64,000 nt of DNA from a virus, in the IMG/VR virus record IMGVR_UViG_3300021067_000006, positions 26,838 through 90,837 of that record; one strand, written 5' to 3'. Position numbers and translations under genes: made by a program. The notes under the pieces were generated by a model, which saw only the letters and a program-made list of their open reading frames with translations, had not been told where the DNA came from and did no database searches. Of this stretch, positions 10,563 to 39,253 are shown piece by piece. How positions within the stretch are numbered: the first letter of the stretch is position 1; the number at the start of each line of letters is the position of its first letter.

Positions 10563-10643
10563 CCGGCTCAGCGCCGGGGTTACCGCCGCCGGCTCAGCGC
10601 CAGCGACAGAAGAGAGCATGGTCTATCTTGCGCTAGCGCGCAA
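10563..10643 (-). promoter_or_regulatory. Early promoter cassette P1: TTGCGC-N17-CATGCT plus two GCTGA-loop hairpins
   Basis: -35 at 10643-10638, -10 at 10620-10615; hairpins 10563-10577 and 10589-10603. Confidence 0.75.
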
Positions 10644-10668
10644 CCGAAAAGCGAACACCGGTCACGGG

Positions 10669-10959
10669 TCAACCTGAAACCCGCTCGGTTTGCTCCTGCA
10701 ACGCGGCGCGTGCCTCGGCCCGCGAACCGTAGCGGCGAGCGCTGTCCGGCTCGGTGCCTCGGTACACGAGCCAAACGGCACCCGTCGACTCGATAATCGC
10801 GAGCCGGTCCGATGGTTCGTGCTCCGAACCGTCCGACCAGTCCCAGGCGCCGCGCCGGTCGAGCAGGTCGGCCAGCGCGCGCGAGGGGTCTTCGTCTTCG
10901 TCGAACTGGTCGAGGATGGCGTCGACCGCGTTGCGATCTAGGGCGCGTGCCATCGTCAC
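10669..10959 (-). CDS. Acidic hypothetical protein (96 aa)
   Basis: GTGA coupling. Confidence 0.6.
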   Translation of the reverse strand: MTMARALDRNAVDAILDQFDEDEDPSRALADLLDRRGAWDWSDGSEHEPSDRLAIIESTGAVWLVYRGTEPDSARRYGSRAEARAALQEQTERVSG

Positions 10960-11249
10960 TCCGCCGCCTTTCGCCCGGCCGACACGAGCTCACGGCACGC
11001 GCGGCGGAAGTCGGCATCGCTGAGCCGGTGCAGCTCGGCGAGCAGAGCGCCGGTCATCCAGTAGTCGGGCGAGCCTCCCCACGAATCGAGCACGCCGTCC
11101 GCCTCGCGCGGCACGAGCGTTATCTCGCCGTCGATGCTGCGCTCACCGAGCCGCACCGTCACGTCGATGTCGACCGCGCCCTCGATGTCGATGCAGCTGC
11201 TCGGCGTCACCGCGCTCGCGTCGACCTCGATCACGAACTCGGCGTCCAT
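10956..11249 (-). CDS. Hypothetical protein (97 aa)
   Basis: TGATG coupling, MDAEFVIEV. Confidence 0.65.
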   Translation of the reverse strand: MDAEFVIEVDASAVTPSSCIDIEGAVDIDVTVRLGERSIDGEITLVPREADGVLDSWGGSPDYWMTGALLAELHRLSDADFRRACRELVSAGRKAAE

Positions 11250-11800
11250 CACGCGCTCCGCTTCTGCGACGCAGCCGCGTTCGCCCGGTATGCATCGAGG
11301 AACTGCGAGACGAGCAGGTCGCCGAACACGACGCTCGGCAGCATCGTCATCGAGTAGTCGTCGCCGTGCTGACCGCAGCGACCGATCCACAGCACGCGCC
11401 CCTTGTAATCCGGGAACGCCTTCGACAGCTCGGCCGCGAGCTTCAAGCCCTCATCGCTCGCAGGCAGCGTCACGAAACGGCGCGTATCGATGCCGCGGCA
11501 TTCGCTGTACCGGCCGCCGATCGCCTTCACCTTGCGCGCCCAGCCCTTGCGGGTGAAGTCGGGCGAGCCGTCGAGATGCAGCTCGACCTGCAGCGGACGC
11601 TCAGCGAGCTGCGCGCGCGTGCGCTCGAGCTCGCGACGCTTGCGCGCGTGCCGAAACACGTCGGCGCTGTGCTGCAACAGCATCGCGTCGATCCGCTCGA
11701 TGAAGCTGCCGACATACAGGCCGGCGTTCGCACGCTGCTGCAGCATCGCGCGCAGGTGTTGGGCGTCACGGTGGTCGAACGAGATGTACGAGGTAGGCAT
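11249..11800 (-). CDS. Hypothetical protein (183 aa)
   Basis: SD GAAAGG; first gene after P2. Confidence 0.7.
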   Translation of the reverse strand: MPTSYISFDHRDAQHLRAMLQQRANAGLYVGSFIERIDAMLLQHSADVFRHARKRRELERTRAQLAERPLQVELHLDGSPDFTRKGWARKVKAIGGRYSECRGIDTRRFVTLPASDEGLKLAAELSKAFPDYKGRVLWIGRCGQHGDDYSMTMLPSVVFGDLLVSQFLDAYRANAAASQKRSA

Positions 11801-11816
11801 CAAGGGAACCTTTCCG

Positions 11817-11896
11817 CCGGCTCAGCGCCAGGCAACGTCGACCGGCTCAGCACCAGCGACGAAAGAGAGCATGGTTCATCATGCGTCAGCACGCAA
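11817..11896 (-). promoter_or_regulatory. Early promoter cassette P2: TTGCGT-N17-CATGCT plus two GCTGA-loop hairpins
   Basis: -35 11896-11891, -10 11873-11868; hairpins 11817-11831 and 11842-11856. Confidence 0.75.
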
Positions 11897-12397
11897 CCGA
11901 AAAGCGACAGCCCATTCGTCTGCAGCCTCTTTCGACTCGAACACGAGCAGGGTAGCCTTGAGCCGACCGGCCCGGGCGTCGATGAGCAGGCGCTCGAGCA
12001 TCACGACCGGCTCGGCCGGCACAGACCCCGGCACGGTCGACGCGGGCAGCGCGGCGCTCGGCACCGATATGCATCCGCGCGATTCCAAACTTGCCCGTGC
12101 ACGCGCCTCGGCCGCCTCGAGGTGCGCGCGCAGCTCGGGCTCGACCGCCACGCGGTTCGCGACGCGGCGCTCGGCCGATGCCACCGACGAATGGTCGCGC
12201 AGCATCTGCCGCCCCGTCTCCGATTGCGACAGCCCGAGCCTGCGGCAGAGATAGATCGCAAACGCGCGCGCGTTGAACAGCGCCGGAGAACGCGCGAGCG
12301 GCGAGTTGTGCGGCACGATGACAGCGCTCGTGACACCGAGCGCGGCGAGCACCGCGTCGCGCACCGCGCTCGGTTCGAGCCCTAGCTGAGCAGCCAT
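11879..12397 (-). CDS. DnaA domain IV (Bac_DnaA_C)-like HTH protein (172 aa)
   Basis: ARAFAIYLCRRLGLSQSETGRQMLRDHSSVASA parallels DnaA RQIAMYL..SLPEIG..RDHTTV. Confidence 0.8.
   Translation of the reverse strand: MAAQLGLEPSAVRDAVLAALGVTSAVIVPHNSPLARSPALFNARAFAIYLCRRLGLSQSETGRQMLRDHSSVASAERRVANRVAVEPELRAHLEAAEARARASLESRGCISVPSAALPASTVPGSVPAEPVVMLERLLIDARAGRLKATLLVFESKEAADEWAVAFRLRADA
12068..12089. promoter_or_regulatory. 22-bp palindrome copy 3 (TATGCATCCGCGCGATTCCAAA)
   Basis: Intragenic member of the family. Confidence 0.7.
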
Positions 12398-12597
12398 CGC
12401 GGCTCCCCCATGAACGGCCGCGGCATCGGCGCGAACACGAATAGCTCGAGCTCGGTAGAGACGAACACGTCTTCGCTCAGCAGCAGCAACGCACACGCGG
12501 CGCAGCAAGGCAGGTCGCCGAAGGCGAGCGCGACCGCCGGGTCGCCGCACTCGCCGTCGGTGTCGACGTCGACGATCATCTCGCAGGTGCGCATCAC
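12382..12597 (-). CDS. Small Cys-rich protein (71 aa)
   Basis: C...CGDP...CCAAC; GTGA coupling. Confidence 0.55.
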   Translation of the reverse strand: MMRTCEMIVDVDTDGECGDPAVALAFGDLPCCAACALLLLSEDVFVSTELELFVFAPMPRPFMGEPRWLLS

Positions 12598-12818
12598 GGA
12601 TCGAGCCTCACATCGACGGACCCCGGCACCACGCGCGCGCCGAACCGACCGACTAGCTCGCGCGCGACTTCGTCATAGATCCACGGCGCACCCGGCGACC
12701 AGCGCACCAGGCGCCGCGTGCCGCTCTGCCCGTGCAGCCGGAACGAGATGACGTGCCGATACCAGGGCACTCCCTCAACGATCTGGTACGGCCGGCGCGT
12801 GCGGCGAACGCGTGTCAC
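12594..12818 (-). CDS. Hypothetical protein (74 aa)
   Basis: GTGA coupling. Confidence 0.55.
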   Translation of the reverse strand: MTRVRRTRRPYQIVEGVPWYRHVISFRLHGQSGTRRLVRWSPGAPWIYDEVARELVGRFGARVVPGSVDVRLDP

Positions 12819-13042
12819 GCGCACACCTCGTCGACGGTTCCAAGCGCGGGCTCGCAGCGCGAGCGCGCCGTGCGCGCGAACACGAAGCCCGCGGCGTCGA
12901 CCTCGAGGCAGACCTCGCACGCGGGCGGCGGCCGGTCATTCACCTCGAACGCATCGGCGCGCTCGTGAACGAACGCGCCGCGCCCCGACCGCGCCGCGGC
13001 GTGCGCCTCGCCGATCGCGAGTCTCAGAGCCTCAAGCGCCAT
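12815..13042 (-). CDS. Hypothetical protein (75 aa)
   Basis: CATCAT-N7-ATG; CEVC. Confidence 0.55.
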   Translation of the reverse strand: MALEALRLAIGEAHAAARSGRGAFVHERADAFEVNDRPPPACEVCLEVDAAGFVFARTARSRCEPALGTVDEVCA

Positions 13043-13047
13043 GCCCC

Positions 13048-13383
13048 TCATGATGCGTCCCTCACGATCGCAGCTAGCAGCCGACGTTCGCTCTCGAGCG
13101 CGGCACTCGCCTCGGGCGGCGGCGGCAGCGTCGGCGCCTCGCGGTCGCGGTACGTGTCGAGCCGCGCGCGCAGCACCGACGACAGCCGCTGCAGCCGGTC
13201 GCGCCGCGTCTTCGCAGCAGCCATCTCGATCGAGCCGGGCAGCGCATGGATCACGCCCTGCAGCACGCCGACCCGTGCGCGTTGTACCTGAGCGTAAACG
13301 GCCGTCACGACCTCGCGGTCATCGAGCTCGAGCGCGAGCGCTGCCTCGTTCTCGAGCATGATGACGTCTTCGAAGCGCCTCAC
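13048..13383 (-). CDS. Hypothetical protein (111 aa)
   Basis: GTGA coupling. Confidence 0.6.
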   Translation of the reverse strand: MRRFEDVIMLENEAALALELDDREVVTAVYAQVQRARVGVLQGVIHALPGSIEMAAAKTRRDRLQRLSSVLRARLDTYRDREAPTLPPPPEASAALESERRLLAAIVRDAS

Positions 13384-13787
13384 GACAGACCCCCGAAAAC
13401 GCGCGGGTTGCTCTCAACCTCGCGCCGCGCGTTGGCGACAGCTTCCTCGACGGTCGCACCGCTGCCGATGACCGTGTCCTCGAACCACACCGCGAACGGC
13501 TGCACCGTGTCGTCGTCCTCGACGTGCAGCTCGCAGCCGGGAAGGAACGACAGGTCGGGCGAGAGCGCCGGCCAATAGAAGAACGCCGTGCGGTCAGGGC
13601 CGACCGTGCACGCGAACGAGTACGCGGCGGGGAGGCTCTGTTGATAGGCGAGCAGCATCGCGCGCGCGACGTGCATCGGATCGGTGATGCGGATACACGG
13701 CGCCGCCGTGCGGTTGTCCATCACCTGCCACTGCGCCGCGAGCCCTGCCTGCTCGAGCAGCGCGAACAGCTGCTGCGCCGGACTCAC
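13380..13787 (-). CDS. Hypothetical protein (135 aa)
   Basis: GTGA coupling. Confidence 0.6.
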   Translation of the reverse strand: MSPAQQLFALLEQAGLAAQWQVMDNRTAAPCIRITDPMHVARAMLLAYQQSLPAAYSFACTVGPDRTAFFYWPALSPDLSFLPGCELHVEDDDTVQPFAVWFEDTVIGSGATVEEAVANARREVESNPRVFGGLS

Positions 13788-13987
13788 AGCGCACCCCGGC
13801 CGGAGTAGCGGACGCCCTCGGTGAGGAGCCAGCACACGTACGAGTCGTACGTGAGCACGTCGTTGCGACGCAGCTCGGCGTCGACATACGCGGCGTACTG
13901 CGTGTTGATCGCGGGCGCGGCATCAGCCGGCGCCGGAACCGTGACGAAAGATTGGGTCGTCGTCGGCGCGGGAATCGTGGTGAACAT
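13784..13987 (-). CDS. Hypothetical protein (67 aa)
   Basis: SD GGAGGAG; first gene after P3. Confidence 0.65.
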   Translation of the reverse strand: MFTTIPAPTTTQSFVTVPAPADAAPAINTQYAAYVDAELRRNDVLTYDSYVCWLLTEGVRYSGRGAL

Positions 13988-14002
13988 CGGGCAATCTCCT
14001 CC

Positions 14003-14081
14003 CCCGGCTCAGCGCCGGGCTCGTCGTCGGCTCAGCGCCGTCGACACAACTGAGCATGCAGCATCATGCGCCGACGCGCAA
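14003..14081 (-). promoter_or_regulatory. Early promoter cassette P3: TTGCGC-N17-CATGCT plus two GCTGA-loop hairpins
   Basis: -35 14081-14076, -10 14058-14053; hairpins 14003-14019 and 14028-14040; T-tract upstream of -35. Confidence 0.75.
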
Positions 14082-14432
14082 CTAAAAAGTGTGCGGCGCG
14101 CGCGACCCCTCGAAAAGACGTGCGCACAACGCACACACCCACACTTCGGCCGCCGGGTCCCGCCGACCATCCGAGCAGCGCGACTCGAACAGCGGCTCGG
14201 CCGGCACCGCAGCGACCATCACGCGCCGGCACGGCGCACAGAACACGGGACCGCCGTGCGGCACGAGCCATCCGACGATGAGGCACGAGCGCCCACCGAA
14301 CACGCGGCCCGCCTCGACAGCCGACAGCCCACCGCCCGTGTTCGGTGACACCGGGCCAAAGCAGTCGACCTTGCTCGGTTGCCAGGCGAACAGGTCGAGC
14401 TGCCGATCGGACACCACGCGGCGCGACATCAC
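14082..14432 (-). CDS. Zn-finger protein with N-terminal QLDLF clamp-binding-like motif (116 aa)
   Basis: RQLDLF; CAPC...CALC; GTGA coupling. Confidence 0.55.
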   Translation of the reverse strand: MMSRRVVSDRQLDLFAWQPSKVDCFGPVSPNTGGGLSAVEAGRVFGGRSCLIVGWLVPHGGPVFCAPCRRVMVAAVPAEPLFESRCSDGRRDPAAEVWVCALCARLFEGSRAPHTF

Positions 14433-14995
14433 TCCCGCAGCAGCACCGCCACCGCGCGCAGGCGCTCGGCGCGCCGCTCGAGTTGCTCTGCGCGCCGGTT
14501 GCCCGAGCCCTTGAGCTGCTGCTCGATGAGCTCAGCGAGCCGCTCGGCAAGCTGCGACGGGGCGAGCACAGCCGCAGCTTCGACGTCACCGATCACGCTC
14601 TCGACCACCCGCGCTTTCGTGACCCACTGGTCGGGCTTTTCGGGGTCGTCGTGCCAAACACCGCTTCGTGCGATCGACGCGAAGCGCCCATCGTCGAGCA
14701 GGTAGAGACGCTCGCCACCGAGCGAACCGCTGTCGTCGCCGGGCCCCTCGGTAAACCCATCTTCGAGCAGCACGCCGCGCGGCTCACGCGGATCAGCGTA
14801 CATCCGTTCCTCTTGCCCACGAGCTCGCCGCATGCCCGCGACTTGAATCGCCGAGCAGAGCGCGGGCAGCGCCGGACGCACCGCCTCGACGATCGCGCGC
14901 ATCGCGTCGCCCGCCGCACGCTCGGCCTCGGCACCCGCGGCGAGCTTCCGATCGTGCTGCGCCGCGAGCTCTTCGACTTGTCTCTTGCTGGTCAT
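14429..14995 (-). CDS. Hypothetical coiled-coil protein (188 aa)
   Basis: MTSKRQVEELAAQ; coding-like composition. Confidence 0.65.
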   Translation of the reverse strand: MTSKRQVEELAAQHDRKLAAGAEAERAAGDAMRAIVEAVRPALPALCSAIQVAGMRRARGQEERMYADPREPRGVLLEDGFTEGPGDDSGSLGGERLYLLDDGRFASIARSGVWHDDPEKPDQWVTKARVVESVIGDVEAAAVLAPSQLAERLAELIEQQLKGSGNRRAEQLERRAERLRAVAVLLRE

Positions 14996-15033
14996 CGTCG
15001 TGCATCCTGAGTCGTGGTCGTCGCGCGCGCCGC

Positions 15034-15330
15034 TCACCCTGGCCTCGTCGGCTCGTCTTCGGACATGAGCGCCTGAGCGCGCGCATCCTGCAGCGACGTG
15101 AGCGAGCGACCGCTGCGCACGCAAACGCCGTCGACGTAGAAGCTCGCGACGTAAACGCCGTTGCGCTTCGACGTGCGCACGCACGCCGTATCGCCGTGCT
15201 GGTCGAGCCATTCCATCTCGCGCCTGCAGGTCTCTGCGTTGCGCTCTGCGACCATGCGATGCACGCGCTCCTGCACACTCTCGATCGAAACCGGGGCGCC
15301 GTTCGCCGAACGCCGATAGTTGCCGTCCAT
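15034..15330 (-). CDS. Hypothetical protein (98 aa)
   Basis: SD GAAAGG; first gene after P4. Confidence 0.65.
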   Translation of the reverse strand: MDGNYRRSANGAPVSIESVQERVHRMVAERNAETCRREMEWLDQHGDTACVRTSKRNGVYVASFYVDGVCVRSGRSLTSLQDARAQALMSEDEPTRPG

Positions 15331-15347
15331 TGGGGGGAACCTTTCAT

Positions 15348-15425
15348 GCCGCTCAGCGCGGCGTGTGAAACCGAGCTCAGCGCCCGGCGAGAGTCGACAC
15401 TAGCTCATGATGCTCCGACGCGCAA
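15348..15425 (-). promoter_or_regulatory. Early promoter cassette P4: TTGCGC-N17-TAGTGT plus two GCTGA-loop hairpins
   Basis: -35 15425-15420, -10 15402-15397; hairpins 15348-15362 and 15371-15387. Confidence 0.7.
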
Positions 15426-15426
15426 G

Positions 15427-16002
15427 CTATTCGCTCTCACCGGGCGGAAGCGCGGGCATAGCCGCCGGTGCTTCCGCCACCTCGACGCCTGCAGCGTCGA
15501 CCACACCCGGGTCGGGCATGCGCACAAGCATCAGCCGCACGCGGTCGAGCAGCCCAGTGCCCGGCACCCGCGCTTTCTCGAGCGCGGTCTGCGCCTCGAT
15601 CGCTTCCGTCATCAGCCGCGTCGCAGCTTCAGCCTGCCGCTGCGCGACGGGCATGTCGCCCGACAGCGCACGCACGGCGCGCATGAACGCCGTCACGACG
15701 ATGCCCTCGAGCTGCGTGACACGCTTGCCTAACAACGCATTCCGCTCTTCTAGCTGCTGAAGTTTCCGAGCTTCCTGCCACGCGTTCCGTGAACGCTCGA
15801 CGTCACCGCGTTGCTTGGCCTCGAGCAAATTGAGCGCACGCGCCGCGAAGCTGAGCTCGACACGCGCAGCCTCCGAAGTTCCAGCGACGAGCGGGCGCGC
15901 GCGTTCTTCGAGCTCGAGCAGCTCACGACGCAAACGCTCGAGCTCGGAGCTCGGCTCGATGATCGCGTTCGTCGGCGGCAGTAGTTTCGGCACGTCCGCC
16001 AT
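15427..16002 (-). CDS. Coiled-coil hypothetical protein (191 aa)
   Basis: MADVPKLLPP; heptad-rich. Confidence 0.65.
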   Translation of the reverse strand: MADVPKLLPPTNAIIEPSSELERLRRELLELEERARPLVAGTSEAARVELSFAARALNLLEAKQRGDVERSRNAWQEARKLQQLEERNALLGKRVTQLEGIVVTAFMRAVRALSGDMPVAQRQAEAATRLMTEAIEAQTALEKARVPGTGLLDRVRLMLVRMPDPGVVDAAGVEVAEAPAAMPALPPGESE

Positions 16003-16009
16003 GATGCCG

Positions 16010-16861
16010 TCACCGCTCTGCGATCTGCGCGGCGATGCTCTCCGCCGCACTCGTCCCGTAGTAATCGCGCCCGGCGCGCAGCATGCCGCTCGCGCGTGCC
16101 TGCTCGCGCGCCATCCATGCAGCCATCAACGTGTCGCCCGTGTGCGCGTTCGGTGTGTACGCGAGCAGGTCGTCGACGAACGTCTGCACGCCCGGCGCGC
16201 AGCGCCCGCGCTCGTCCGCGGGGATGAGCCATGCACCGTTCTCGAGCTCAACGAGCAGCGACTCGACGCCGAACAGCGGGTTGCGCTTGTTGCGTGCAGA
16301 CGTCTCGTGCGAGCGCACGCGCAGCGTCGCGTCGAGCTCGAGCGACCACTGCCTGAGGTAGTCCTGGAACGCGTTCGTCTCGATGCGCACGATCGACTCA
16401 AACCGATCGTGATGCGACCGCACGAGCTCGATGAGCGCGCGACCGCCCATGCGCCCCGAGTTGACGTCGAGCACGAGGCGACGATTATCAGCGAGCACGG
16501 CGAACGTGAACACCGAGCAAAGGTCCGACCCCTTCCGGCGCGACGCGGCGAGGTCGACGCCGGTGAACGCACCGCCCCGTTCCCATCGCGCCTGCGGTCG
16601 GTCGTAGTCGAGCTCGCGCGCGCGTGCTTTCGCCGCTCGGATCCATTCGTCTTTGACGCGCGCGCTCGTGTCGTCGCGCGTCCGGTTGCCGTACGCACGC
16701 GCGAACTCCGAGCCGCCGCCCATCATCGTGCGGATCTCAACGAGCTTCTCGCGCGGGAACTTGCCCGGCCAAAGCGGCACGATGTCGTGCGCGTCGACCC
16801 AGCCAGCGCTCTCCGACGCCACAAGCGCCGCATCGCTCGGCGACAGCGCCGCTGGTTTCAC
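16010..16861 (-). CDS. Terminase large subunit, RNase H-like nuclease half
   Basis: PLWPGKF, GVDLA..SD, IETNAFQ, GDTLMAAW motifs. Confidence 0.85.
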   Translation of the reverse strand: MKPAALSPSDAALVASESAGWVDAHDIVPLWPGKFPREKLVEIRTMMGGGSEFARAYGNRTRDDTSARVKDEWIRAAKARARELDYDRPQARWERGGAFTGVDLAASRRKGSDLCSVFTFAVLADNRRLVLDVNSGRMGGRALIELVRSHHDRFESIVRIETNAFQDYLRQWSLELDATLRVRSHETSARNKRNPLFGVESLLVELENGAWLIPADERGRCAPGVQTFVDDLLAYTPNAHTGDTLMAAWMAREQARASGMLRAGRDYYGTSAAESIAAQIAER

Positions 16862-17805
16862 AGCGCCCCCGCGCGCATCTCTTCGGCGGCTTGCTCGATG
16901 AGCTCACGCCGATCATTCGCGACGAGTCGATGCACTCCCGAGTCGCCGCCGATGAGCGACGGTCGAATGTCGGGCGAATCGAAGTCGTCGGCGTTCTTGA
17001 AAAAGACGTTGCCCCACGCGTCCATGCTGCAGCTCGGCCATCCGATTTTCTCGAGCTCGTACGTGACATCCTCCGGATGCCATGGCGTGTTCGTCACGCA
17101 GCAGCGCGCGCCCTTCTCGCCGAGCCGCGTGACCACCGTCGAAAGTACCCACTTGTTTACCTTGCGACGCTGCTCCGCGGTGCTCGTGTTCTGCTCATCG
17201 AGGATGTCGTCGACGTTCGCCCAGTTCAGGCGCGAGCCCGGTAGGCGCTTGCTATCGAGCCCGAGCGCGACGCACGATGGATCGCGAATGCCGTACGGTC
17301 GATCGATCGTGATGGCCGTCTGCGTCCACGGCTCTCCGTCGCGCTGCGTCGGCAGAAGCTGCGGGTAAACGAGCCGGAGCTCCGGGCTATCCTCGATGTA
17401 CGAACGCACGGCGAGCAGCGGCTTGCTCGCCTGATCTTCGCTGCTCGAGATGAACGCGCCGCGCGTCGTCTTGCTTTTCCCGAGCTGCCACAACGTGAGC
17501 CCAGTCATGCAGAACGACTTAGAAAACCCGACGGGCAAACGCAGCACCGTAAACGGGTAGTGCCGCACGAAGTCGAACAGCACGCGCTGATGCGGCAGCG
17601 TCACGATACGCACGCGCGTTGTCTCCTCGCGCATCACGTACCCAAAAAAGTGCTTTGGGCTCTCACGCGCGAGCGCGACGCGCCGCATGTTCCACTCGAC
17701 TAGCAGCCGCTCCTCATCCGACAGCGCGGCGAGCCGCGAGAACGGCGCGCCGCGCGGCGGGTTGTGAATGCTGTCGAGGTACTGCTCGGGGCTCGGCTGT
17801 GCCAT
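16858..17805 (-). CDS. Terminase large subunit, ATPase half
   Basis: LPHQ, LPVGFSKS (Walker A), WANVDD (Walker B), TPWHPED. Confidence 0.85.
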   Translation of the reverse strand: MAQPSPEQYLDSIHNPPRGAPFSRLAALSDEERLLVEWNMRRVALARESPKHFFGYVMREETTRVRIVTLPHQRVLFDFVRHYPFTVLRLPVGFSKSFCMTGLTLWQLGKSKTTRGAFISSSEDQASKPLLAVRSYIEDSPELRLVYPQLLPTQRDGEPWTQTAITIDRPYGIRDPSCVALGLDSKRLPGSRLNWANVDDILDEQNTSTAEQRRKVNKWVLSTVVTRLGEKGARCCVTNTPWHPEDVTYELEKIGWPSCSMDAWGNVFFKNADDFDSPDIRPSLIGGDSGVHRLVANDRRELIEQAAEEMRAGAL

Positions 17806-17880
17806 CGGTCCGGTGCGCTGTTCCTTTCGGACGGCGCGCCCGGGGATAGCGCAGGAGAGGGGGCTCCCGAGTCGCTGAGC

Positions 17881-18453
17881 TTAGCTCGACTCTGGACGCC
17901 ACGCGCGTAGCTGCGCGAGGACACGCAGATACGTCGCCCGCCGAGCGCCGACGTCGCGCAGGCTACCCGAGCAGCCGCGCCCGCCGTACGCCGAGAAGAC
18001 ACGGTCGATCCACTGCTCGCCGCCGTGCGCCTCGAACGAGCGGCAGAGCCACCGCGCTCGCGTGATCGCCCGCACCGCGGCGCCCGCGGCAACGCTCGTC
18101 GGCTGCAGGCCTGCACCGACGAGCGCGTCGAACACCTCGTCGGAAACGACAGCGCCGCGTTGCAGCTGCCAAGGGCTTCGCGCCCGGCCGCGGTCGCACT
18201 CCCACGGCTTGCACTGCCCCTCGTGAATCCTCAGCGAGAAGCGCGATTCCGAGTCGCCGATGGTGATCGCGAACGCGGCTAGCTGCTCACGCGGCCACGG
18301 CCAGCGAGGCTCAGCCTGCACCGCGACGGCGAGCGCATCGGCGACGACCGCGAGCTGCGCACGCTTGAGCTCGTGGTGCTCGCGATCTTCGTGGAACACA
18401 GGTCGGGCGAGGAGCGCGGCGAGGATCGCGCCGGCTGCGATGGTGCTGGACAT
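17881..18453 (-). CDS. Lytic transglycosylase (SLT)/lysozyme-like exported protein (190 aa)
   Basis: Hydrophobic N-terminus; IGDSESRF and GRARSPWQL resemble SLT motifs I and II; later AY motif. Confidence 0.6.
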   Translation of the reverse strand: MSSTIAAGAILAALLARPVFHEDREHHELKRAQLAVVADALAVAVQAEPRWPWPREQLAAFAITIGDSESRFSLRIHEGQCKPWECDRGRARSPWQLQRGAVVSDEVFDALVGAGLQPTSVAAGAAVRAITRARWLCRSFEAHGGEQWIDRVFSAYGGRGCSGSLRDVGARRATYLRVLAQLRAWRPESS

Positions 18454-18462
18454 GCCCGGGGT

Positions 18463-20234: not shown

Positions 20235-20255
20235 CAAGTCGATGATGCCGGGCCG

Positions 20256-30503: not shown

Positions 30504-30506
30504 GAC

Positions 30507-30749: not shown

Positions 30750-30832
30750 TTCGAATTCTCCTCACCATGGCAGGTCGTCATCGCCGAACAGCTCGGCGGC
30801 TGTTCGGCGGGCCTTGAACGTTTCGAGCTCGA

Positions 30833-32116: not shown

Positions 32117-32175
32117 CGGTTCTGTTCTCCGTTCTTCGTTCGGTTTCCGTGCAGAGCGAGCTCGGCCGAGCTCGT

Positions 32176-33021
32176 TCAATCTGAGCGCTGTCGCGCCACC
32201 ATCTGCCGCAAGTCCCGTGCTCGCTCGATGGTACGAGCCTCGAGCGACTCGAGCGCAGCAATCATGCGGCGTGCCTTGCCTCTGCGCATCTCGAGGTCGC
32301 GCCACTCGCGCGGGTACTTCTCAGCGAGCGCGGCGTCGATGTCCGCTTCCGTGATCTGCTTGCTGCGCCCGACCGGTTCATCCGTCTTCGCTTTCTTCGC
32401 AGCTTCGGCTGCAGCCTTGTGGCGTGCTCGTTCGACTTCGAGGTCGGCGATCACGCCCGCGCGCAGCGCTGCAACGATCGTCTTCGCGTCGAGCTCGTAA
32501 GCGTCGTGAGCGACCTTCGCGTTCACAAGCAACAGCGTCGCGCGGTACGCGATGTCCTCGGCGTGGTCGAGCGCGTCAACGAGGTCGCCGTAAGCCAAGC
32601 CGCTCGCGGCGCGGCGCGCGCCGAACGACAGCGCTTCGCGAATCTCACGGTACTCGGCATCCGGTTCGGCCAGGTCGTAGAGATGATCGACGATACGGTC
32701 GTACCCCGCGCCCATCGAAAGGTCCGAAGCCTCTTTGCCAGCGAGCTCGCGCTGTCGCGCAGCAGTGCGTTCTTCGACCTCGCGCTGCGACAGCTCGACC
32801 TCACGTTCGAGCTGCGCAGGTGGCCGCTCAAAAGCCTCTCTCACTTCTCTCTCAGCGTTCGACGTATCGCGATCGTCCGGTCGAACATCGCCGCTTGTCA
32901 CACGCGCTTGTCCTGCCTGCGCCTCTTTCGGCGCACTGGCTTCGGCTCGTCCGGCTTCGGCTTGTCCGGCGGCGGGTTCATCGGTTCGCTTCCTCGGCTG
33001 TACCTGGGTTCGGCTTCTCAC
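32176..33021 (-). CDS. Coiled-coil hypothetical protein (281 aa)
   Basis: CATGAT-N7-GTG; helical; UvsY-like position. Confidence 0.65.
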   Translation of the reverse strand: MRSRTQVQPRKRTDEPAAGQAEAGRAEASAPKEAQAGQARVTSGDVRPDDRDTSNAEREVREAFERPPAQLEREVELSQREVEERTAARQRELAGKEASDLSMGAGYDRIVDHLYDLAEPDAEYREIREALSFGARRAASGLAYGDLVDALDHAEDIAYRATLLLVNAKVAHDAYELDAKTIVAALRAGVIADLEVERARHKAAAEAAKKAKTDEPVGRSKQITEADIDAALAEKYPREWRDLEMRRGKARRMIAALESLEARTIERARDLRQMVARQRSD

Positions 33022-33040
33022 GCCGCCCATCATGCCGCCG

Positions 33041-35482
33041 TCAGAAGCCAAACCCCATCTGCTCGCGCGGCACCGGTCGTCCACGTTCACGCGGGCGAGA
33101 GCGTCCGAAGCTGCGATGCCAGTCGTAGTCGGGGAAGCACACCTCGAGCACGCGCTCGGTGGGCGGCCACACCAGCGTCTCCCAGAGGTAGTGCCGATCT
33201 TCGGTGCCGGGTTCGAACTCGAACAGCCCAACGACCTTCTGCGGCGAGCGCGCACCGTCCACGACCACGTACTCGATGCGCACGCCTTGGCTCACGTCCA
33301 TGCCGAGCTCGCGCATGCGGCGCGCGAGCTCGACGTGCACGGCCTGCGATGCCCACTCATCGCCGTGCTTTTTCTTACGGCGCGCGTAGCCCTCGATCTC
33401 GCGGCTAAGCTGCTTGCTCAGCACGAAGTCGTCGCGCTCGAGCCGACCCTTGAGCACGCGCGCGCGCCATCGATCGGCAAGCTCGCAGAAGTCGCGATGC
33501 GTGTACGGCAGCACAGCCGGCGCTTCCGGCCGGTCCATGCACAGCAGGACCCTGACGGCTTCCTCTTGCATCTCGCGAGCGAGTCGCGCGGAGTCGCCGC
33601 GCTTGAACTCGAGCCCCTTGATCTCGGGGCGCGACAGCTCATTCGCGCGCTTGCCGTCGAAGTGCTCGAACCGTCCGGCGTAGCGTTTCTTTTTGACGTA
33701 AACGAGAATCGAGAATCGCTTCTCGTAAGCGAGCTTGACGCCGAACGGCGGACGACAGCCGCAGCTCGCGAGCAACTTCGGATACAGCTCACGGTTGCAC
33801 GCTTCGACGAACGTACGGAACCGCTGTTCTTCGACGCCCGCGGCGAACACCGAGTCGGTGTCGACTGCGATCGTCTCGATGCCGTGCTGCTCGCGACCGT
33901 ACGCAATCGTCGACTTGATCAGCCACACGCCGGCCTGCGCCACCGACTCGGCGATCTGCCGGCGAAAAAACCTCGAGAACGGCGACCCGACGACGCCGTA
34001 AAACGAGTTGTTGATCTGCTTGTATGCCGTGCTCCGACGGTCCGCGTCTTTCCACTCGTCAGTGCCTGGAACCGCTGCAGCTTTCGCGCGCTTCCACTGC
34101 TCGCGCAACCGCGCGATCTCTTCGACTGCGACGACGAGCAGCCCTTTCGGTTCGGTGCGGAACACCTCGCCCGTCATCGGCACGCGGCAGTAGCCCGGCG
34201 GCGGAGGCACGAGCTCGACACGAGGGTCAACGTTGGGCGCGATGAGACGCTGCGCAGCCTCGGGAACATGCGTCTCGAGCGACATGTTCCACGCGACGAT
34301 GTTGCGCGGGTACATCGCCGCGAAGTCGGCAACGTCGACACCGCGAAGCACACCCTTGTGCTTCGGCTCCATGACGTAAGCGCCGGCGAATGGGTCGGCT
34401 TCGCCCGGCGTTTGGAAGCGCGATGGGAAGTGACCGCCGCCGCGCTCGCGCGCGAGCCGCAGGATGAACGACTCCACGAAGCTCGTCGCCCGCATACCGC
34501 GCGCATCGGGGAACGTGCCGCACACGAGGCACAACTCGATCATCAGCTCGATGAAGCCGGTGCGCTTCTCAATGCGCCACGCGAGCTCAGTGTCGACGAC
34601 GTTGTAATCGCTGAGCAGCGCGCGCTGCTCGCCACCGGCGGCCCAGTAATCCCAGGACTTGCGCGCTTCAACGGAAAGCTTCGCGACGTCGGCCTCGCCG
34701 TGCAGCACACGCGCTGCCACGCGGCCGAGCGCCATGCTCTGCTTCTCCTCGCCGCTCTCGGATGCCGAGATGTTTCCCTTGCGAAAGATGGCGAGGTGAT
34801 CGGCCGTGAGCCAGCGCCTCAGGTTCACGCGGATACCGAGCCGCGCGACGCGCGCGCCAAGCACCGGGAAGTCGAAGCCGTGCTCGTCATCCTCCCAATC
34901 GTCGCCGCCGTACCACGCGAGCACGAGGTCGACCGACATGAGCTCGTCGAATAGGTCCTCGAGCAGCAGCGTCTCGGCCTCGTCGGTGTCGTGCTCGAGC
35001 ACGCCTCTGACCTTCTCGCCGTCCTCGAACGTGAGCGACCAGCACAGCACGCGCGCCTCGCTCTTCTGCGACATCGGCACACGCGAATCCGTCTCGATGT
35101 CGAGGATCGCCCAACGCGGGCGCTGCACCGAGAACCCGCGCTCGACCATCACGCGGCGCACCGGGTTCAGGTCGCCTTCATACGTGGCGATGCCGCGCTG
35201 CTCGAAGTAGCCGCCGCGCCCACAGAACGACCGCGCGACGTCGTAGCTCGCCCAGCGCAGCCGAACCCAATCGCCCTCGATCGCGTAGCCGCGCACCGCG
35301 CGCGATCGCTTCGCCTGCGCTTCGATGTCCGCGGCGAAGTCCTCGCGTCGGATGTGGCACGCGTACTCGGCGGGGAACAGATGCTTGCTGACAGAGCCGT
35401 CCTGCTCACGGCGCAGCAGCACCACGCGGTCGCCAGCGACGAACCCGTTGACGAAAAATTGAGGCGGACCCGACCCGTTCAT
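33041..35482 (-). CDS. Family B DNA polymerase
   Basis: DIETD (ExoI), FDF (ExoII), YNVVD (ExoIII), DFAAMYP, KQINNSFYG, DTDS, KKRYAG, KGLE. Confidence 0.95.
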   Translation of the reverse strand: MNGSGPPQFFVNGFVAGDRVVLLRREQDGSVSKHLFPAEYACHIRREDFAADIEAQAKRSRAVRGYAIEGDWVRLRWASYDVARSFCGRGGYFEQRGIATYEGDLNPVRRVMVERGFSVQRPRWAILDIETDSRVPMSQKSEARVLCWSLTFEDGEKVRGVLEHDTDEAETLLLEDLFDELMSVDLVLAWYGGDDWEDDEHGFDFPVLGARVARLGIRVNLRRWLTADHLAIFRKGNISASESGEEKQSMALGRVAARVLHGEADVAKLSVEARKSWDYWAAGGEQRALLSDYNVVDTELAWRIEKRTGFIELMIELCLVCGTFPDARGMRATSFVESFILRLARERGGGHFPSRFQTPGEADPFAGAYVMEPKHKGVLRGVDVADFAAMYPRNIVAWNMSLETHVPEAAQRLIAPNVDPRVELVPPPPGYCRVPMTGEVFRTEPKGLLVVAVEEIARLREQWKRAKAAAVPGTDEWKDADRRSTAYKQINNSFYGVVGSPFSRFFRRQIAESVAQAGVWLIKSTIAYGREQHGIETIAVDTDSVFAAGVEEQRFRTFVEACNRELYPKLLASCGCRPPFGVKLAYEKRFSILVYVKKKRYAGRFEHFDGKRANELSRPEIKGLEFKRGDSARLAREMQEEAVRVLLCMDRPEAPAVLPYTHRDFCELADRWRARVLKGRLERDDFVLSKQLSREIEGYARRKKKHGDEWASQAVHVELARRMRELGMDVSQGVRIEYVVVDGARSPQKVVGLFEFEPGTEDRHYLWETLVWPPTERVLEVCFPDYDWHRSFGRSRPRERGRPVPREQMGFGF

Positions 35483-35555
35483 GCAGACGGGAGCGCCGGG
35501 GAAGGGAAGCCCGGCGCCGGAGGTTGGTGGGGTCGTCGGGTTCGGGTCCGCCTCA
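35460..35555 (-). promoter_or_regulatory. Long hairpin enclosing the PolB start codon, followed by a T-tract
   Basis: 14-bp perfect IR 35460-35473 / 35542-35555; inner IR 35493-35500 / 35510-35517. Confidence 0.6.
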
Positions 35556-35556
35556 C
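35479..35556 (-). CDS. Putative 25-aa leader peptide MRRTRTRRPHQPPAPGFPSPALPSA
   Basis: CATCAT-N7-GTG start; TGA overlaps PolB ATG (ATGA). Confidence 0.45.
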   Translation of the reverse strand: MRRTRTRRPHQPPAPGFPSPALPSA

Positions 35557-35561
35557 AAGTC

Positions 35562-36875
35562 CTATGATGCCGCGTCGACCTTTCGGTGCTCGATGATCAA
35601 CACGAGCCCGCGGCCCTCGACGTTGACCAGCCGATAGTGCGTCTCGGTTCCGTTGATCGCAACGTCGAGCCCGTGCGGATCGTCGTCGACCGACGTCGCC
35701 GCGCGCGGCGTCCCGTCGACGTTGGGGTTGCGCGCGTACAGCGCGATCTCGCGACGCTGGCTCGAGTGCACGAGCACGATCTCGTCCTCGGAAACGATAC
35801 GCGGTCGGGACGCAGGCGCGCCGCCCGTACCCGTGCTCGGCTTGTCTGCACTCGGCTGCTGCACGTTCGCCGCGCTCGCCGCGCCGTTCGCTTCCGATGG
35901 CTCTGCCTTGCGCGTGCCGTCGAACGGCGTGCCCGTGCGCGCCGTTCCGAAGCCACCGCGCGAGCTCGGCTGCACGACAGGATCGCGCGTCGCGCCGGGA
36001 TGTTCCTGCTGCACTCGCTGCTCGAGCTCACGACTGCTCAGCACCCCGGCTTTCTCGAGCAGCTTCGCGCGTGCTTCCTCTGGCACTCGCACGAGCACCT
36101 TCAGCTTGGTGATCCCAAACTTCCTGACGTCGGCTTCCTCGAACGCCGTCGCGACCGCCATCACGTCGCGCGCGAGCTGCGGCGACATGTTGAGCTCGGC
36201 TGTGCAGAACGCCGCCCATGACTTGTACAGCGGCTGCCCCTTCGCATCGACGCGAAACTTGTACAGACCACGATCGTAGTTGTCGAACAGGGCACGGCCT
36301 AGCTGCCAGTACGTTCCGACCGCGTCGCCCTGCAGCGTCTTGATGCGCTTGACCGATGCGTCGAGCTCTTTCGCTGCGCCCTTCATCGCCGCCGCGTTCG
36401 ACGTCGCGAGCGGCAGCGCCGGCGCCTTCTCAGTCGCAGCCGGTTTCGATGCAGCAGCGGGCTTCGACACACCTGCCGGCTTCGCCTTCGTCGCAGCAGG
36501 CTTCGCCTTCGTCGCAGCAGGCTTCGCCTTCGACGCAGCAGGCTTCGCCTTCGCTTCATCAGCGGCAGCCTTCACCTGCACACCCGACGCCGCAGGCGAG
36601 TCTGCGGTCGGCGCGGTCTCACCGGTTCCGCAGTACGGACACACCGGCAGCGAGAGCAGCGACGGCCCGCCGCAGCTGCGGCAGTCGCCGAGCTTTTTCT
36701 CGTCCTTTTCCTTCAGGACTATATCGGCATATTCGCGCACACGTTTTTCGACGGAGTCTTTCGCCGTGAACTTGAGGCCGGCCTGCTTCGCGTATTCGTT
36801 GAGGGTCGTGAGATTCACCTTCGCGAGGTCGACACCACGCACCAACTTCGGAACGTTCGCTACTGCTTGAGTCAT
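35562..36875 (-). CDS. Putative DNA-binding protein with Zn ribbon, histone H1-like repeats and DUF3102-like helical core
   Basis: CRSC..CPYC; (KAKPAAT/S)n; YWQLGRAL...SWAAFCTAEL. Confidence 0.7.
   Translation of the reverse strand: MTQAVANVPKLVRGVDLAKVNLTTLNEYAKQAGLKFTAKDSVEKRVREYADIVLKEKDEKKLGDCRSCGGPSLLSLPVCPYCGTGETAPTADSPAASGVQVKAAADEAKAKPAASKAKPAATKAKPAATKAKPAGVSKPAAASKPAATEKAPALPLATSNAAAMKGAAKELDASVKRIKTLQGDAVGTYWQLGRALFDNYDRGLYKFRVDAKGQPLYKSWAAFCTAELNMSPQLARDVMAVATAFEEADVRKFGITKLKVLVRVPEEARAKLLEKAGVLSSRELEQRVQQEHPGATRDPVVQPSSRGGFGTARTGTPFDGTRKAEPSEANGAASAANVQQPSADKPSTGTGGAPASRPRIVSEDEIVLVHSSQRREIALYARNPNVDGTPRAATSVDDDPHGLDVAINGTETHYRLVNVEGRGLVLIIEHRKVDAAS
36478..36553. repeat. Coding tandem repeat, 21-bp unit x about 3.6
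   Basis: GGCTTCGCCTTCG(TC/AC)GCAGCA units encoding KAKPAAT/S. Confidence 0.85.
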
Positions 36876-37519
36876 GAGAGAGGGCTTTCACTGGATTGAG
36901 AGAGGGTAGCTTTGAGCACACGGCGCACTGCGCGCTCAGCGTGCTCGGGTTCGATGTTGAATGCGAGATGCAGCATGCTGTTCCGCCGCACTGTTTCGAC
37001 CGTCTGCCGGAGGTCACCGGTGCGAGCCAGCACGCCGAGCACGTACCGCTGCAAGCTCTCCTGCGCTCGCTCTGCGAGCAACGCAAGCGTCTCGCGACGC
37101 TCGCACTGCTCGTGCATCTCGACCGTCTCGTCGACGTCGGCAGACGCCTTTTCGACGAGACGCTGCTCGGCCGTGCCGTCGATAGCTAAACACGCGAACG
37201 GCAACGGGTAACGGGACTTGCTTTTGCCGTCGCGGCGGAACGCACAGCGCTCGCGATGCAGCCACTTGACCGCCTTGTCACACGCGTTCCAAACGACGAA
37301 ATCTTCGAGCGACCGCCCCCGTTCCGGATCCCAACGCGGCACCCGTCGGTGGACGTCGGCGAGCATCACCTGCACGACATCCTCGATGTCGACCGAAGGC
37401 GGTAGGCGCCAGCGTCGAATCAGCGACGACGCGAGGGAAAACCATTCCTTTCGGGTGATGGCGTAGAAGCGGGCAAAGGTGATGCGCCCGCAGTGATAAG
37501 CGCGCAACTCGTTTTTCAT
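36872..37519 (-). CDS. Phage-encoded sigma-70-family factor (215 aa)
   Basis: IEDVVQ...RWDPERGRSLEDFVVW resembles region 2; helical region-4-like C-terminus. Confidence 0.75.
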   Translation of the reverse strand: MKNELRAYHCGRITFARFYAITRKEWFSLASSLIRRWRLPPSVDIEDVVQVMLADVHRRVPRWDPERGRSLEDFVVWNACDKAVKWLHRERCAFRRDGKSKSRYPLPFACLAIDGTAEQRLVEKASADVDETVEMHEQCERRETLALLAERAQESLQRYVLGVLARTGDLRQTVETVRRNSMLHLAFNIEPEHAERAVRRVLKATLSQSSESPLS

Positions 37520-37537
37520 GACGGCGACTTCCGTGCG

Positions 37538-37597
37538 AAAGTGAGGCGCTGCGGCTCGCCAACCCTCGAGAGGGGAGGGAAGGCGAGCCGCAGCGCC
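37538..37597 (-). terminator. Strong hairpin (16-bp IR) with weak U-tract upstream of the sigma gene
   Basis: 37545-37560 / 37582-37597 perfect IR, then TCACTTTC on minus strand. Confidence 0.55.
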
Positions 37598-37607
37598 ATC
37601 GGGCCCC

Positions 37608-39176
37608 TCAGATAGTGATCGCCTCGAACGGCAGAGCGCGGCGCTTCTGGTCGAGCAACAGGCGACCGGCAGCAGCCTGCACCTCATCCTCGAGCCACGG
37701 GTCCGTGTTGACCTCGTGAGCCCAGCGCGTGAAAGCGTTGACGACCGCGGCGCGGGTCACGCCGCGCGCGGGGTCGGGGCGCCCGTCAACGAGCGAGCTG
37801 CGCGTCGCGCTGCTCACGTCGCGGTCGTACATCGACAGCAGCTGTCGCACGACCTCGGGGCGCTTGCCTCGCACCGGCACGAGCTCGCGCTCGATGCAGC
37901 CGTTGAACGCAGCCGCGAGCACCTCGCGCGCCGGCCGGGACATCAGCTCTTCGTCGGCGGCGCTGAGCACGTTCTCGTGCGTGGCCAGGTTCCAGGCCCG
38001 CACGAAGTGATCGATCTTGCCGAGCGCCGCAGCGAACTCATCGTCGAACCGTTCGGCGAGCGCCTCGACGCTGCCGACGTGACGGATGCGAGCGACCTCC
38101 TGCGAGGCCTCATCGAGGATGATGAGGTTTAGGCAGAGGTTCTGCCAAACAACCGCGCTCACGACGATCGAGCCCGAGCCATCGTCGCGCGTGCGCACCG
38201 TGACGCCCGCTTTAAAAAACTCGCCGGCGACGTAGTTCTCGGGCTGCACGTCGCTGTGAAACAGCGCCTCGATGCGCGTGCGCACGCCGTCGTACACGAC
38301 CCCGCCGCGCGCGCCGTCGGCGTAGCCGAGCGTGTTGAGCGAGCGCCGTACCGCCGCAGCGACGCGATCCGAGTCGAACGTCGCGTACTTCGGACCAACG
38401 ACGCCGAACACCTCGGGCTTGTCCTCGGGCCCGCGCAGGCGCAGCTTCGCGTCGCCCCGCTGAGCCTGTGCACCATCGTCGCCCGCGAGCCAGTGGTTGA
38501 CGTTCGTCGCGCGCAGCCGCGGCGTGCAGCGCTCGAGGTACTCACGGCCTCCGATGCCCGAGCGCGTCAGCAGACCGCCGAACCCGACCACCGAAGGGAA
38601 CCCGACGAGCCGGTGCACGTCACCCTCGGTGCGAACGAACGCGCCATCGCTGCGCATGCGCAGCTCGCCGAGCGGCATGTCGAGGTCGCGCCGGTTCTCG
38701 TCGACGATGCGCCGCTCGAACGCGACACAGCTGTCGACCGTGCGATCCATGGCCGACCACTCGAGACGCGACGTGCGCGCGTTCTCGACGCCGACATCGA
38801 TCACGCGCGAGCCCCGAGCGTAAACCGTCTGCTTCGGCGCAAAGCCATTCGCTTCCGCTGCCGCCTTGTCAGCGAGAGACCGGGCACGGCCTTCCTCGCT
38901 GATGCCGCCTTCCTGCCGCGACACCCGCGGCACGCGGCCAGCCGGCGGCGCGATGACAATGGGAGCAGTCGAGCCATCGCCAAGCGCGTGCGGCGCCGGC
39001 TGTGCAGCGGGCGCCGGTATGGCGCCGCGCGGTTGCATATCGTTCGAAGCGACCGGGGTCACCTTTGGAACGCCACCACCCGCGAGCTTCACGAGCTCGT
39101 CGCACGTCGCGAACGTCTGCTCGGCCGATACGATCCGCTTCTCATTCCCCAGGGTCACGATGTACTGCTGTTGCAT
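37608..39176 (-). CDS. DUF932-like protein (522 aa)
   Basis: VFGVVGPKY, RDDGSGS, LCLNL, IRHVG, VVNAFT motifs. Confidence 0.7.
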   Translation of the reverse strand: MQQQYIVTLGNEKRIVSAEQTFATCDELVKLAGGGVPKVTPVASNDMQPRGAIPAPAAQPAPHALGDGSTAPIVIAPPAGRVPRVSRQEGGISEEGRARSLADKAAAEANGFAPKQTVYARGSRVIDVGVENARTSRLEWSAMDRTVDSCVAFERRIVDENRRDLDMPLGELRMRSDGAFVRTEGDVHRLVGFPSVVGFGGLLTRSGIGGREYLERCTPRLRATNVNHWLAGDDGAQAQRGDAKLRLRGPEDKPEVFGVVGPKYATFDSDRVAAAVRRSLNTLGYADGARGGVVYDGVRTRIEALFHSDVQPENYVAGEFFKAGVTVRTRDDGSGSIVVSAVVWQNLCLNLIILDEASQEVARIRHVGSVEALAERFDDEFAAALGKIDHFVRAWNLATHENVLSAADEELMSRPAREVLAAAFNGCIERELVPVRGKRPEVVRQLLSMYDRDVSSATRSSLVDGRPDPARGVTRAAVVNAFTRWAHEVNTDPWLEDEVQAAAGRLLLDQKRRALPFEAITI

Positions 39177-39194
39177 CTCTTGCGTCTGCTTTCT

Positions 39195-39253
39195 CCGGCT
39201 CAGCGCCGGGCACCAACAAGAGACACCCTAGAGCATCTTGCGTCGTCGCGCAA
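39195..39253 (-). promoter_or_regulatory. Early promoter cassette P5: TTGCGC-N17-TAGGGT plus one GCTGA-loop hairpin
   Basis: -35 39253-39248, -10 39230-39225, A-tract upstream; hairpin 39195-39209. Confidence 0.75.

Follow-up and report, generated by a model that had tools for sequence, protein, structure and literature searches.

A family of leader hairpins with an invariant GCUGA loop follows five promoter cassettes in an uncultured phage genome

The minus strand of a 64,000-nucleotide stretch of an uncultured virus genome (bases 26838 to 90837 of the 90,837-bp IMG/VR record IMGVR_UViG_3300021067_000006; the whole stretch is here called the window, and the genome G000) carries nine hairpins that share a GCTGA loop (GCUGA in RNA), all of them located after the five copies of a promoter cassette, P1 to P5. 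We conclude that these hairpins are real RNA-level elements in the 5' leaders of the five cassettes. The reading that we favor, at a probability of roughly 45%, is that they act as a leader tag, which caps the message and is read base specifically by a factor acting on its stability or translation. Neither a catalogued RNA family nor a published description of a GCUGA leader element was found.

RESULTS

Nine hairpins with a fixed loop and drifting stems

A sequence-only reading of this DNA had listed nine minus-strand hairpins downstream of five promoters, and all nine were recovered (Table 1), with their groups matching the five cassette copies one to one. Two hairpins follow the promoter at P1 to P4 and one at P5; next come a Shine-Dalgarno (SD) sequence and the start codon. 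The tandem pairs lie between the -10 box and the SD, as had been described, at loop-to-loop spacings of 26, 25, 23, and 24 nucleotides (nt) for P1 to P4. Stems are 4 to 9 bp long, and the GCUGA pentaloop, which is constant in all nine copies, is closed by a C-G and then a G-C pair (U·G in place of C-G in the distal hairpin of P2). A scan for GCTGA loops with at least four flanking pairs returned these nine and two more on the minus strand, both intragenic; the remaining 26.8 kb of the genome, beyond the window, contain no such hairpin. With stems of at least five pairs, there are nine such hairpins on the sense strand and one on the other strand, and the expectation for the same hairpins from 300 dinucleotide shuffles is 1.65 ± 1.3, with a maximum of 7. 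Placement after promoters is a stronger argument than this excess: the motif TTGCG-N7-9-GCA..AT occurs in five copies in the 90.8-kb genome, and hairpins lie within 60 nt of each.

In a 23-column alignment of the nine hairpins (alignment A1), G8 and G10 to C16 are constant and the surroundings vary. The stems hold 48 Watson-Crick pairs, 8 G-U pairs, and no A-C pair, in agreement with the earlier observation of G-U wobbles on the transcribed strand; one further cell is A·A. Given eight G-U and no A-C, the element folds on the transcribed strand, as the complementary strand would have C·A mismatches at those places. The compensatory change reported for the stems is also present: pairing holds in 44 of the 45 cells of the inner five positions, both sides have changed in six of the nine pairs, and 76.5% of cells are paired overall, compared with 22 to 52% when the partners are slid. 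The observed pairing score was reached by 1 of 500 shuffles. Full compensatory changes are found mostly in the two P4 hairpins. Inter-hairpin spacers, promoter spacers, flanks, and stems have all drifted while the loop has stayed fixed.

The hairpin arms drift around a fixed asymmetric center, whereas a dyad over the -35 boxes (see below) does the opposite, with fixed arms and a free center; this is the contrast between an RNA hairpin and an operator. It bears on the possibility, which we consider very improbable, that the hairpins are a DNA-level site (an operator, a cruciform, or a restriction/modification-type target) or the substrate of a processing RNase (RNase III or Cas6-like). GCTGAGC does match GCTNAGC and is a short interrupted palindrome, the island headed by P1 to P4 encodes a DpdA DNA-modification enzyme, and 5 bp with a pentaloop is the size of a Cas6f substrate. 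However, varying arms around a fixed asymmetric center are the reverse of an operator, and the stem mismatches are G·T on the sense strand (8), never A·C, with one A·A; the stems are too short for RNase III, and the scanned proteins yielded no RNase domain, whether Cas6-like or of another kind. A CsrA-type GGA loop was dropped since the loop contains no GGA, as was a K-turn or C/D-box-like reading, for which the loop is too small to be a K-loop.

Table 1. Positions of the promoter cassettes, GCUGA hairpins, and context features in the window
Feature	Position	Strand	Details
P1 promoter	10615..10643	minus	-35 TTGCGC (10643-10638), 17-nt spacer, -10 CATGCT (10620-10615)
P1 dyad	10643-10628	minus	TTGCGC-N4-GCGCAA
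P1 distal hairpin	10585..10607 (core 10589-10603, extendable 10583-10609)	minus	9 bp; paired from predicted +1, G at 10607
P1 proximal hairpin	10563..10577	minus	ends 14 nt before ATG 10548
P2 promoter	11868..11896	minus	TTGCGT, 17 nt, CATGCT; dyad 11881-11896
P2 distal hairpin	11837..11860 (core 11841-11857)	minus	U·G closing pair, one bulge; paired from predicted +1
P2 proximal hairpin	11817..11831	minus	16 nt before ATG 11800
P3 promoter	14053..14081	minus	TTGCGC, 17 nt, CATGCT; dyad 14066-14081
P3 distal hairpin	14023..14045 (core 14028-14040)	minus	one A·A; paired from predicted +1
P3 proximal hairpin	14003..14019	minus	abuts SD GGAGGAG; 15 nt before ATG 13987
Terminator-like hairpin and T-run upstream of P3	~14140-14105	minus	
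P4 promoter	15397..15425	minus	TTGCGC, 17 nt, TAGTGT; dyad 15410-15425
P4 distal hairpin	15370..15388	minus	7 bp with G·U pairs; paired from predicted +2
P4 proximal hairpin	15348..15362	minus	GCCGC/GCGGC, two compensatory pair changes; 17 nt before ATG 15330
P5 promoter	39225..39253	minus	A-tract, TTGCGC, 17 nt, TAGGGT; dyad TTGCG-N6-CGCAA, 39238-39253
P5 single hairpin	39195..39209	minus	at predicted +9; 18 nt before ATG 39176 of DUF932-domain gene
Sigma-like protein gene (context)	36872..37519	minus	215 amino acids; Sigma70_r2, E value 6.7e-7
Hairpin between DUF932 gene and sigma-like gene (context)	37545..37597	minus	16-bp stem; outside the GCUGA family

Promoter cassettes and predicted transcript starts

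Each cassette consists of TTGCGC or TTGCGT, a 17-nt spacer, and a -10 box of the form yAkGsT (CATGCT, TAGTGT, or TAGGGT, with A2 and T6 constant). The transcript start was taken as the eighth nucleotide after the -10 box, a rule drawn from leaderless genes of the phage family. For comparison, a capsid search gave 43 related uncultured contigs, ten of which were used as whole or near-whole genomes. One of them, G011, has an A-tract, TTGCGC or TTGCGG, 16 nt, and TATAGT ahead of two genes, and one of these genes is leaderless, with its ATG at the eighth nucleotide after the -10 box; across the relatives, TAnnnT followed by 6 to 7 nt and a start codon is common. G000 itself contains 21 sense-strand copies and 1 antisense copy of GCATCAT, and an open reading frame (ORF) starts 6 to 8 nt after 14 of the 21 sense copies (exactly 7 nt after 11). 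Minus-strand examples in which a start codon follows after exactly 7 nt, without an SD, are at 41032, 20248, 19049, 16007, 13056, 7843, 6577, 1716, and 1435. GCATCAT is probably a -10 element for leaderless mRNAs and is possibly read by the phage sigma factor.

Folding of the predicted leaders with RNAfold gives exactly the GCUGA hairpins and leaves the SD open. The distal hairpin is paired from nucleotide 1 (P1 to P3) or 2 (P4) of the predicted transcript, which places a hairpin within 0 to 2 unpaired nt of the predicted 5' end at these four promoters. From the end of the proximal hairpin to the start codon there are 14 to 18 nt, with the SD 1 to 5 nt 3' of the stem. A leader peptide starting at the ATG of CATGCT (MLSxVxGAEP at P1 to P3) was considered and rejected, as it is missing at P4 and P5 and its ATG falls inside the inferred -10 box.

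The dyad TTGCG-N6-CGCAA lies over the -35 boxes of all five cassettes (10628-10643 at P1; Table 1). At the equivalent place G011 has the dyad CTGCGC-TATA-GCGCAG, and genes for two helix-turn-helix (HTH) proteins lie immediately upstream of P5 (39275-39670 and 39830-40069). Judged from its sequence, the -35 dyad is likely the binding site of a dimeric HTH regulator.

The same leader design with other loops in a related phage

The relative G001 is syntenic with G000, at protein identities of 30 to 66%, and shows the same 5'-terminal design. It carries 17 tandem cassettes at ~6170-17990 of L129 (G001:26170-37990), on the opposite side of the terminase from P1 to P4 in G000. Each is made up of an intrinsic terminator (A-rich loop and T-run), TTGACT, a G/T-rich spacer, TATGGT or TACGTT, 7 nt, one hairpin of 15 to 17 nt, a purine-rich SD, and an orphan gene. 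Under the same +1 rule, a hairpin at +1/+2 is the minimum-free-energy fold (RNAfold) in 16 of 17 leaders, and the 17th can form one. The stems fall into several compensating classes, with 77 Watson-Crick and 11 G-U pairs, and the loops have a looser consensus, C-R-A-N-G. Since the G001 loops differ, it is the design that is conserved, and the loop is phage specific. The 3' loop/stem string UGAGCC is common to nine G001 hairpins and the G000 hairpins.

Other searches located the GCUGA family in G000 only. A covariance model of the nine hairpins (R1), a check that the sequence-only reading had pointed to, was run over 0.89 Mb in ten genomes; only the nine training hairpins score 24 to 31 bits, and nothing else in the genomes searched (G001 and G004 to G011) exceeds 20.9 bits, the best other match being at that score. 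Rfam, also suggested there, gave no match at gathering score in the 64-kb window. A strict twin-hairpin pattern had no match in IMG/VR and 76 in metagenomes, all of them coding repeats, tandem repeats, or unrelated intergenic DNA; a loose tandem-loop pattern had more than 118 matches in IMG/VR, all coding or tandem-repeat noise. The IMG/VR and metagenome searches found no further carrier of twin GCUGA hairpins, although records very close to the window may be absent from the searched sets.

The leader of the DUF932-domain gene (P5) offers the one orthologous comparison available. G001 and G011 keep CGCUGAG in this leader, ~33 to 39 nt before the ATG, within a weaker hairpin in G001 and a register-shifted one in G011, and CGCTGAG is absent from the DUF932-gene leaders of G004, G006, and 12 further contigs. 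An unrelated hairpin adjoins the SD in several further DUF932 leaders (a GCGA-tetraloop hairpin in contig L293 and a long hairpin in L297).

A generic scan for units of -10 box, hairpin, and SD in G004 to G011 revealed no repeated family, and clustering of upstream regions in these genomes gave phage-specific palindromes instead. Each of G004 to G011 (L252 to L291) has its own perfect 18- to 24-bp palindrome in 17 to 44 copies, for example, CGGATGATCGATCATCCG, GACGCCGGATCGATCCGGCGTC, and CTGGAACTCGAGTTCCAG, and many gene-upstream copies stand a few base pairs before a TAnnnT box and a leaderless start codon; the sigma gene of G006 has its own promoter of this palindrome type. From this arrangement, the palindrome looks like a phage-specific activator or operator site in place of a -35 box. 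No perfect palindrome of at least 16 nt is present in at least three copies in G000.

A proposed leader tag at the 5' end of the message

In the reading that we favor, the distal hairpin of P1 to P4 would take in the first or second transcribed nucleotide and leave no single-stranded 5' end, and such a paired end would shut out the enzymes of 5'-end-dependent decay (RppH, RNase E, or RNase J). The proximal hairpin would sit just 5' of an SD that stays unpaired. A trans-acting factor, most probably an RNA-binding protein of the phage or of its host, would bind the loop base specifically and would jointly set the stability and/or translation of a small regulon. This regulon comprises the four cassettes at the head of the island and, upstream of the sigma gene, the DUF932 gene. 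5' stem-loops stabilize mRNA, and RppH and RNase E require single-stranded 5' ends (PMC3997798). The presence of a hairpin on every leadered cassette of two diverged and otherwise leaderless-favoring phages gives good indirect support to 5'-end protection. The loop is under selection: its five bases and the closing pairs are fixed while the stems drift, and the fixed bases include both N positions of GN(N)RA, the pattern of P22 boxB loops. We therefore infer a base-specific reader.

It may also be that there is no reader and that the hairpins are a purely cis-acting structure, serving as a 5'-end stabilizer and keeping upstream sequence from pairing with the SD, with the loop fixed by a compact fold or because the copies are young. 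We regard this as unlikely, though together with antitermination it is a main rival of the leader tag. The hairpins are 5' terminal in both G000 and G001, the loops of G001 vary, and DUF932 leaders of other contigs carry the unrelated SD-adjacent hairpins mentioned above (L293 and L297). But five loop bases and the closing pairs are invariant in nine copies whose surroundings have diverged, a constraint on the fold alone would leave loop positions 2 and 3 free, and end protection needs no second identical hairpin.

Several observations weigh against the leader tag. The P5 hairpin begins at +9, and the transcript starts are derived from promoter spacing. Each cassette has a second -10-like motif, GCAWSAT, 8 nt upstream; if this were the real -10 box, the leaders would be ~8 to 10 nt longer and the distal hairpin would not be strictly terminal. 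A pure 5' stabilizer requires neither a fixed loop nor a second hairpin. No candidate reader appeared among ~50 scanned proteins, and phylogenetic profiling for a reader returned no protein confined to G000 and G001. As GC-rich shuffles fold well too, the z-scores of the folds are modest (-1.1 to -2.2), and independent compensatory events are few, because most come from the two P4 hairpins. Finally, comparative support for the loop is thin, because among the examined genomes the GCUGA family is seen only in G000, with weak single copies in G001 and G011.

Antitermination, a less likely reading

The boxB loops of phage lambda are GAAAA or GAAGA and are bound by the arginine-rich motifs of N proteins. 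The GCUGA hairpins resemble lambdoid boxB in having a short GC stem, a 5-nt loop of fixed sequence, a promoter-proximal position on early transcripts, and a phage-specific sequence. The sequence-only reading had proposed a boxB- or nut-like element with a loop outside the GNRNA pattern. The loop indeed does not fit GNRNA (lambda) but, by the logic of its sequence, would fit the P22 form, GN(N)RA, as GCUGA minus U is GCGA (PMC12550061, PMC9830547); in P22 boxB, GACAA, the third base is extruded and the other four adopt the GNRA fold (PMC12550061). Because of this fit, a boxB/N-like role retains some probability.

Processive antitermination of the N/boxB kind would mean that an Arg-rich phage protein on the GCUGA hairpins makes RNA polymerase starting from P1 to P5 resistant to termination, either at the hairpin before the sigma gene or at Rho-dependent sites in the island. 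We find this rather unlikely. The 5-bp GC stem and pentaloop have the size of boxB, the hairpins are promoter proximal on every unit, and small Arg-rich candidates exist (a 63-amino-acid ORF at 8601-8792, which has RRR near its N terminus as well as a zinc ribbon; further Arg-rich proteins are encoded at 7341-7859 and 42577-43140). However, the predicted transcripts hold no conserved boxA-like single-stranded element. The distal hairpin is predicted to begin at +1/+2; the spacers between hairpins are not conserved; and GCTCTCTT is found at P1 and P2 in or upstream of the -10 box and is absent from P3 to P5. The ~50 scanned proteins gave no Pfam or PHROG match to the N family or to any other RNA-binding domain, N proteins being short and divergent, and no ASCH protein, which had been named as a candidate partner, was found among them. 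On the sense strand between 7000 and 18000 there is a single terminator-like site, just before P3, which has its own promoter; this count covers intrinsic-type terminators, as Rho sites are not visible in sequence. The G001 cassettes each have their own promoter and terminator, an arrangement that antitermination would make pointless, and twin hairpins abutting the SD are foreign to nut sites.

A further argument had been made from the order at P5, where a strong hairpin stands between the first gene and the sigma gene. The order is real: the 16-bp-stem hairpin comes directly after the DUF932-domain gene, with no clear U-run, and the order of DUF932 gene, hairpin(s), and sigma gene is common to G001, G004, G006, and G011. 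It is not specific evidence for antitermination, because it is kept in G004 and G006, whose leaders lack GCUGA hairpins. The description as an RNA-level leader element thus stands; lambda-style antitermination and membership among nut sites, with no boxA and no N-family match, are not supported as stated.

A more specific idea, possible though doubtful, is that a phage-encoded reader outside the N family docks on the P22-like GN(N)RA loop at the 5' end of selected messages and controls either message fate or the polymerase, the hairpins being the RNA half of a new phage regulon-tag system. The G001 loops would then be sister specificities of a widespread uncatalogued class.

Genome context and the accessory island

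G000 has a GC content of 68%, and almost all of its genes are on the minus strand. The window encodes a family-B DNA polymerase, a RecA/UvsX-like protein, an SbcC-like protein, helicases, a DnaB-like helicase, a primase, a split large terminase, and the 215-amino-acid Sigma70_r2 protein. The large terminase is divided into two ORFs with a 4-nt overlap, an ATPase (16858-17805) and a nuclease (16010-16861). A DNA-level comparison against 50,697 phage records gave no similarity for G000, and tblastn matches of its DNA polymerase were all below 30% identity, which leaves G000 without a cultured relative. A 437-amino-acid protein (35562-36875) without a Pfam match is kept in all relatives; its sequence combines a CxxC pair of zinc-ribbon type with a long Lys/Ala/Pro-rich (AKPA) repeat tract that recalls histone H1-like DNA-binding tails.

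P1 to P4 head an accessory island of 22.6 kb that separates the terminase from the head genes (window ~1-16010 plus genome 20223-26837). The island has no homologue in nine relatives, save for 3 of ~32 called genes with one weak single-relative match each, and carries the DpdA 7-deazaguanine DNA transglycosylase homologue (E value, 1.5e-81), a ComM/Mg-chelatase-like ATPase (2934-4160), and many orphan genes. A papain-like protease is encoded just beyond it (genome 17260-18066).

DISCUSSION

At the level of the cassette, the closest known systems are the PeSLs (promoter-early stem-loops), which consist of a promoter, stem-loop, and SD before orphan genes in the hyperplastic regions of the T4-type phages RB49 and phi1 (PMC2839356, PMC4122927). 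Shared with them are a repeated composite of sigma70-like promoter, stem-loop, and SD, the association with orphan genes and hypervariable regions, and differing genome positions in relatives. In PeSLs, however, the stem-loop lies over or between the promoter boxes and terminates upstream transcription, whereas the GCUGA hairpins are transcribed and belong to an unrelated high-GC phage family. The GCUGA element is not a PeSL, because PeSL stem-loops lie over the promoter and terminate.

This likeness leads to another explanation, that the block of promoter, hairpin, and SD is a PeSL-like mobile cassette, a recombination site that shuffles orphan genes and is kept uniform by gene conversion. 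The position of P1 to P4 at the head of an island without homologue in nine relatives, the 17 orphan genes flanked by G001 cassettes at another genome position, and the cassette structure of the hyperplastic regions (PMC2839356) agree with it. Yet gene conversion would homogenize stems and spacers as well, and both have diverged; and PeSL stem-loops are terminators between or over the -35 and -10 boxes, whereas the GCUGA hairpins are downstream of the -10 box and have no U-runs. We consider the proposal highly unlikely. A recombination role may account for the spread of the cassette, in our analysis, but not for the fixed loop.

At the level of the hairpin, the closest systems are boxB and the 5' stabilizer stem-loops, although membership in either class is not established. 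Lambdoid nut sites differ in several ways: here no boxA or N-like protein is detected, and the hairpins are twins, of which the distal is predicted to start at +1/+2 and the proximal lies against the SD. In addition, the sites number five instead of two, with no evident terminators to override. Among stabilizers, a similar case is that of the T7 phi10 transcripts, which have a hairpin at +1. As in stabilizers of the ompA/papA type (Emory, Bouvet, and Belasco 1992; reviewed in PMC3997798), the hairpin would span the first transcribed nucleotide, leave no single-stranded end, and recur at each promoter in G000 and G001 if the starts are placed correctly. The known stabilizers are single and have no loop-sequence requirement; by contrast, the GCUGA loop is invariant and the hairpin is doubled.

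Other phage RNA and DNA hairpins are more distant. The put RNAs of HK022 are cis-acting twin stem-loops of ~70 nt with long irregular stems that modify RNA polymerase. They too are two adjacent stem-loops just after an early promoter, with no strict need for a protein factor; the loops of put are not identical. The coat-protein operators of MS2 and PP7 are also small hairpins with a sequence-specific loop near a ribosome-binding site, but they contain the start codon or SD, whereas here the SD is free, 1 to 5 nt downstream of the stem. N4-type promoters are DNA hairpins with a 5- to 7-bp stem and a 3-nt loop, located upstream of the start and used by a giant virion RNA polymerase. This type was rejected, as the GCUGA hairpins have 5-nt loops and follow a sigma70-like promoter, and the largest called ORF in the genome has 884 amino acids.

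If a specific reader exists, it and the GCUGA hairpin would make a small, transferable RNA-protein pair that could be used much as boxB/N or MS2 are. Such a pair would come from a phage lineage without a cultured member and would show how phages of this kind co-regulate accessory genes. Even without a reader, two diverged and mostly leaderless phages would, given the predicted starts, cap their leadered mRNAs with a hairpin at +1. Such capping would clearly illustrate 5'-end protection as it occurs in nature and would supply a useful design rule where genes are to be expressed in high-GC hosts.

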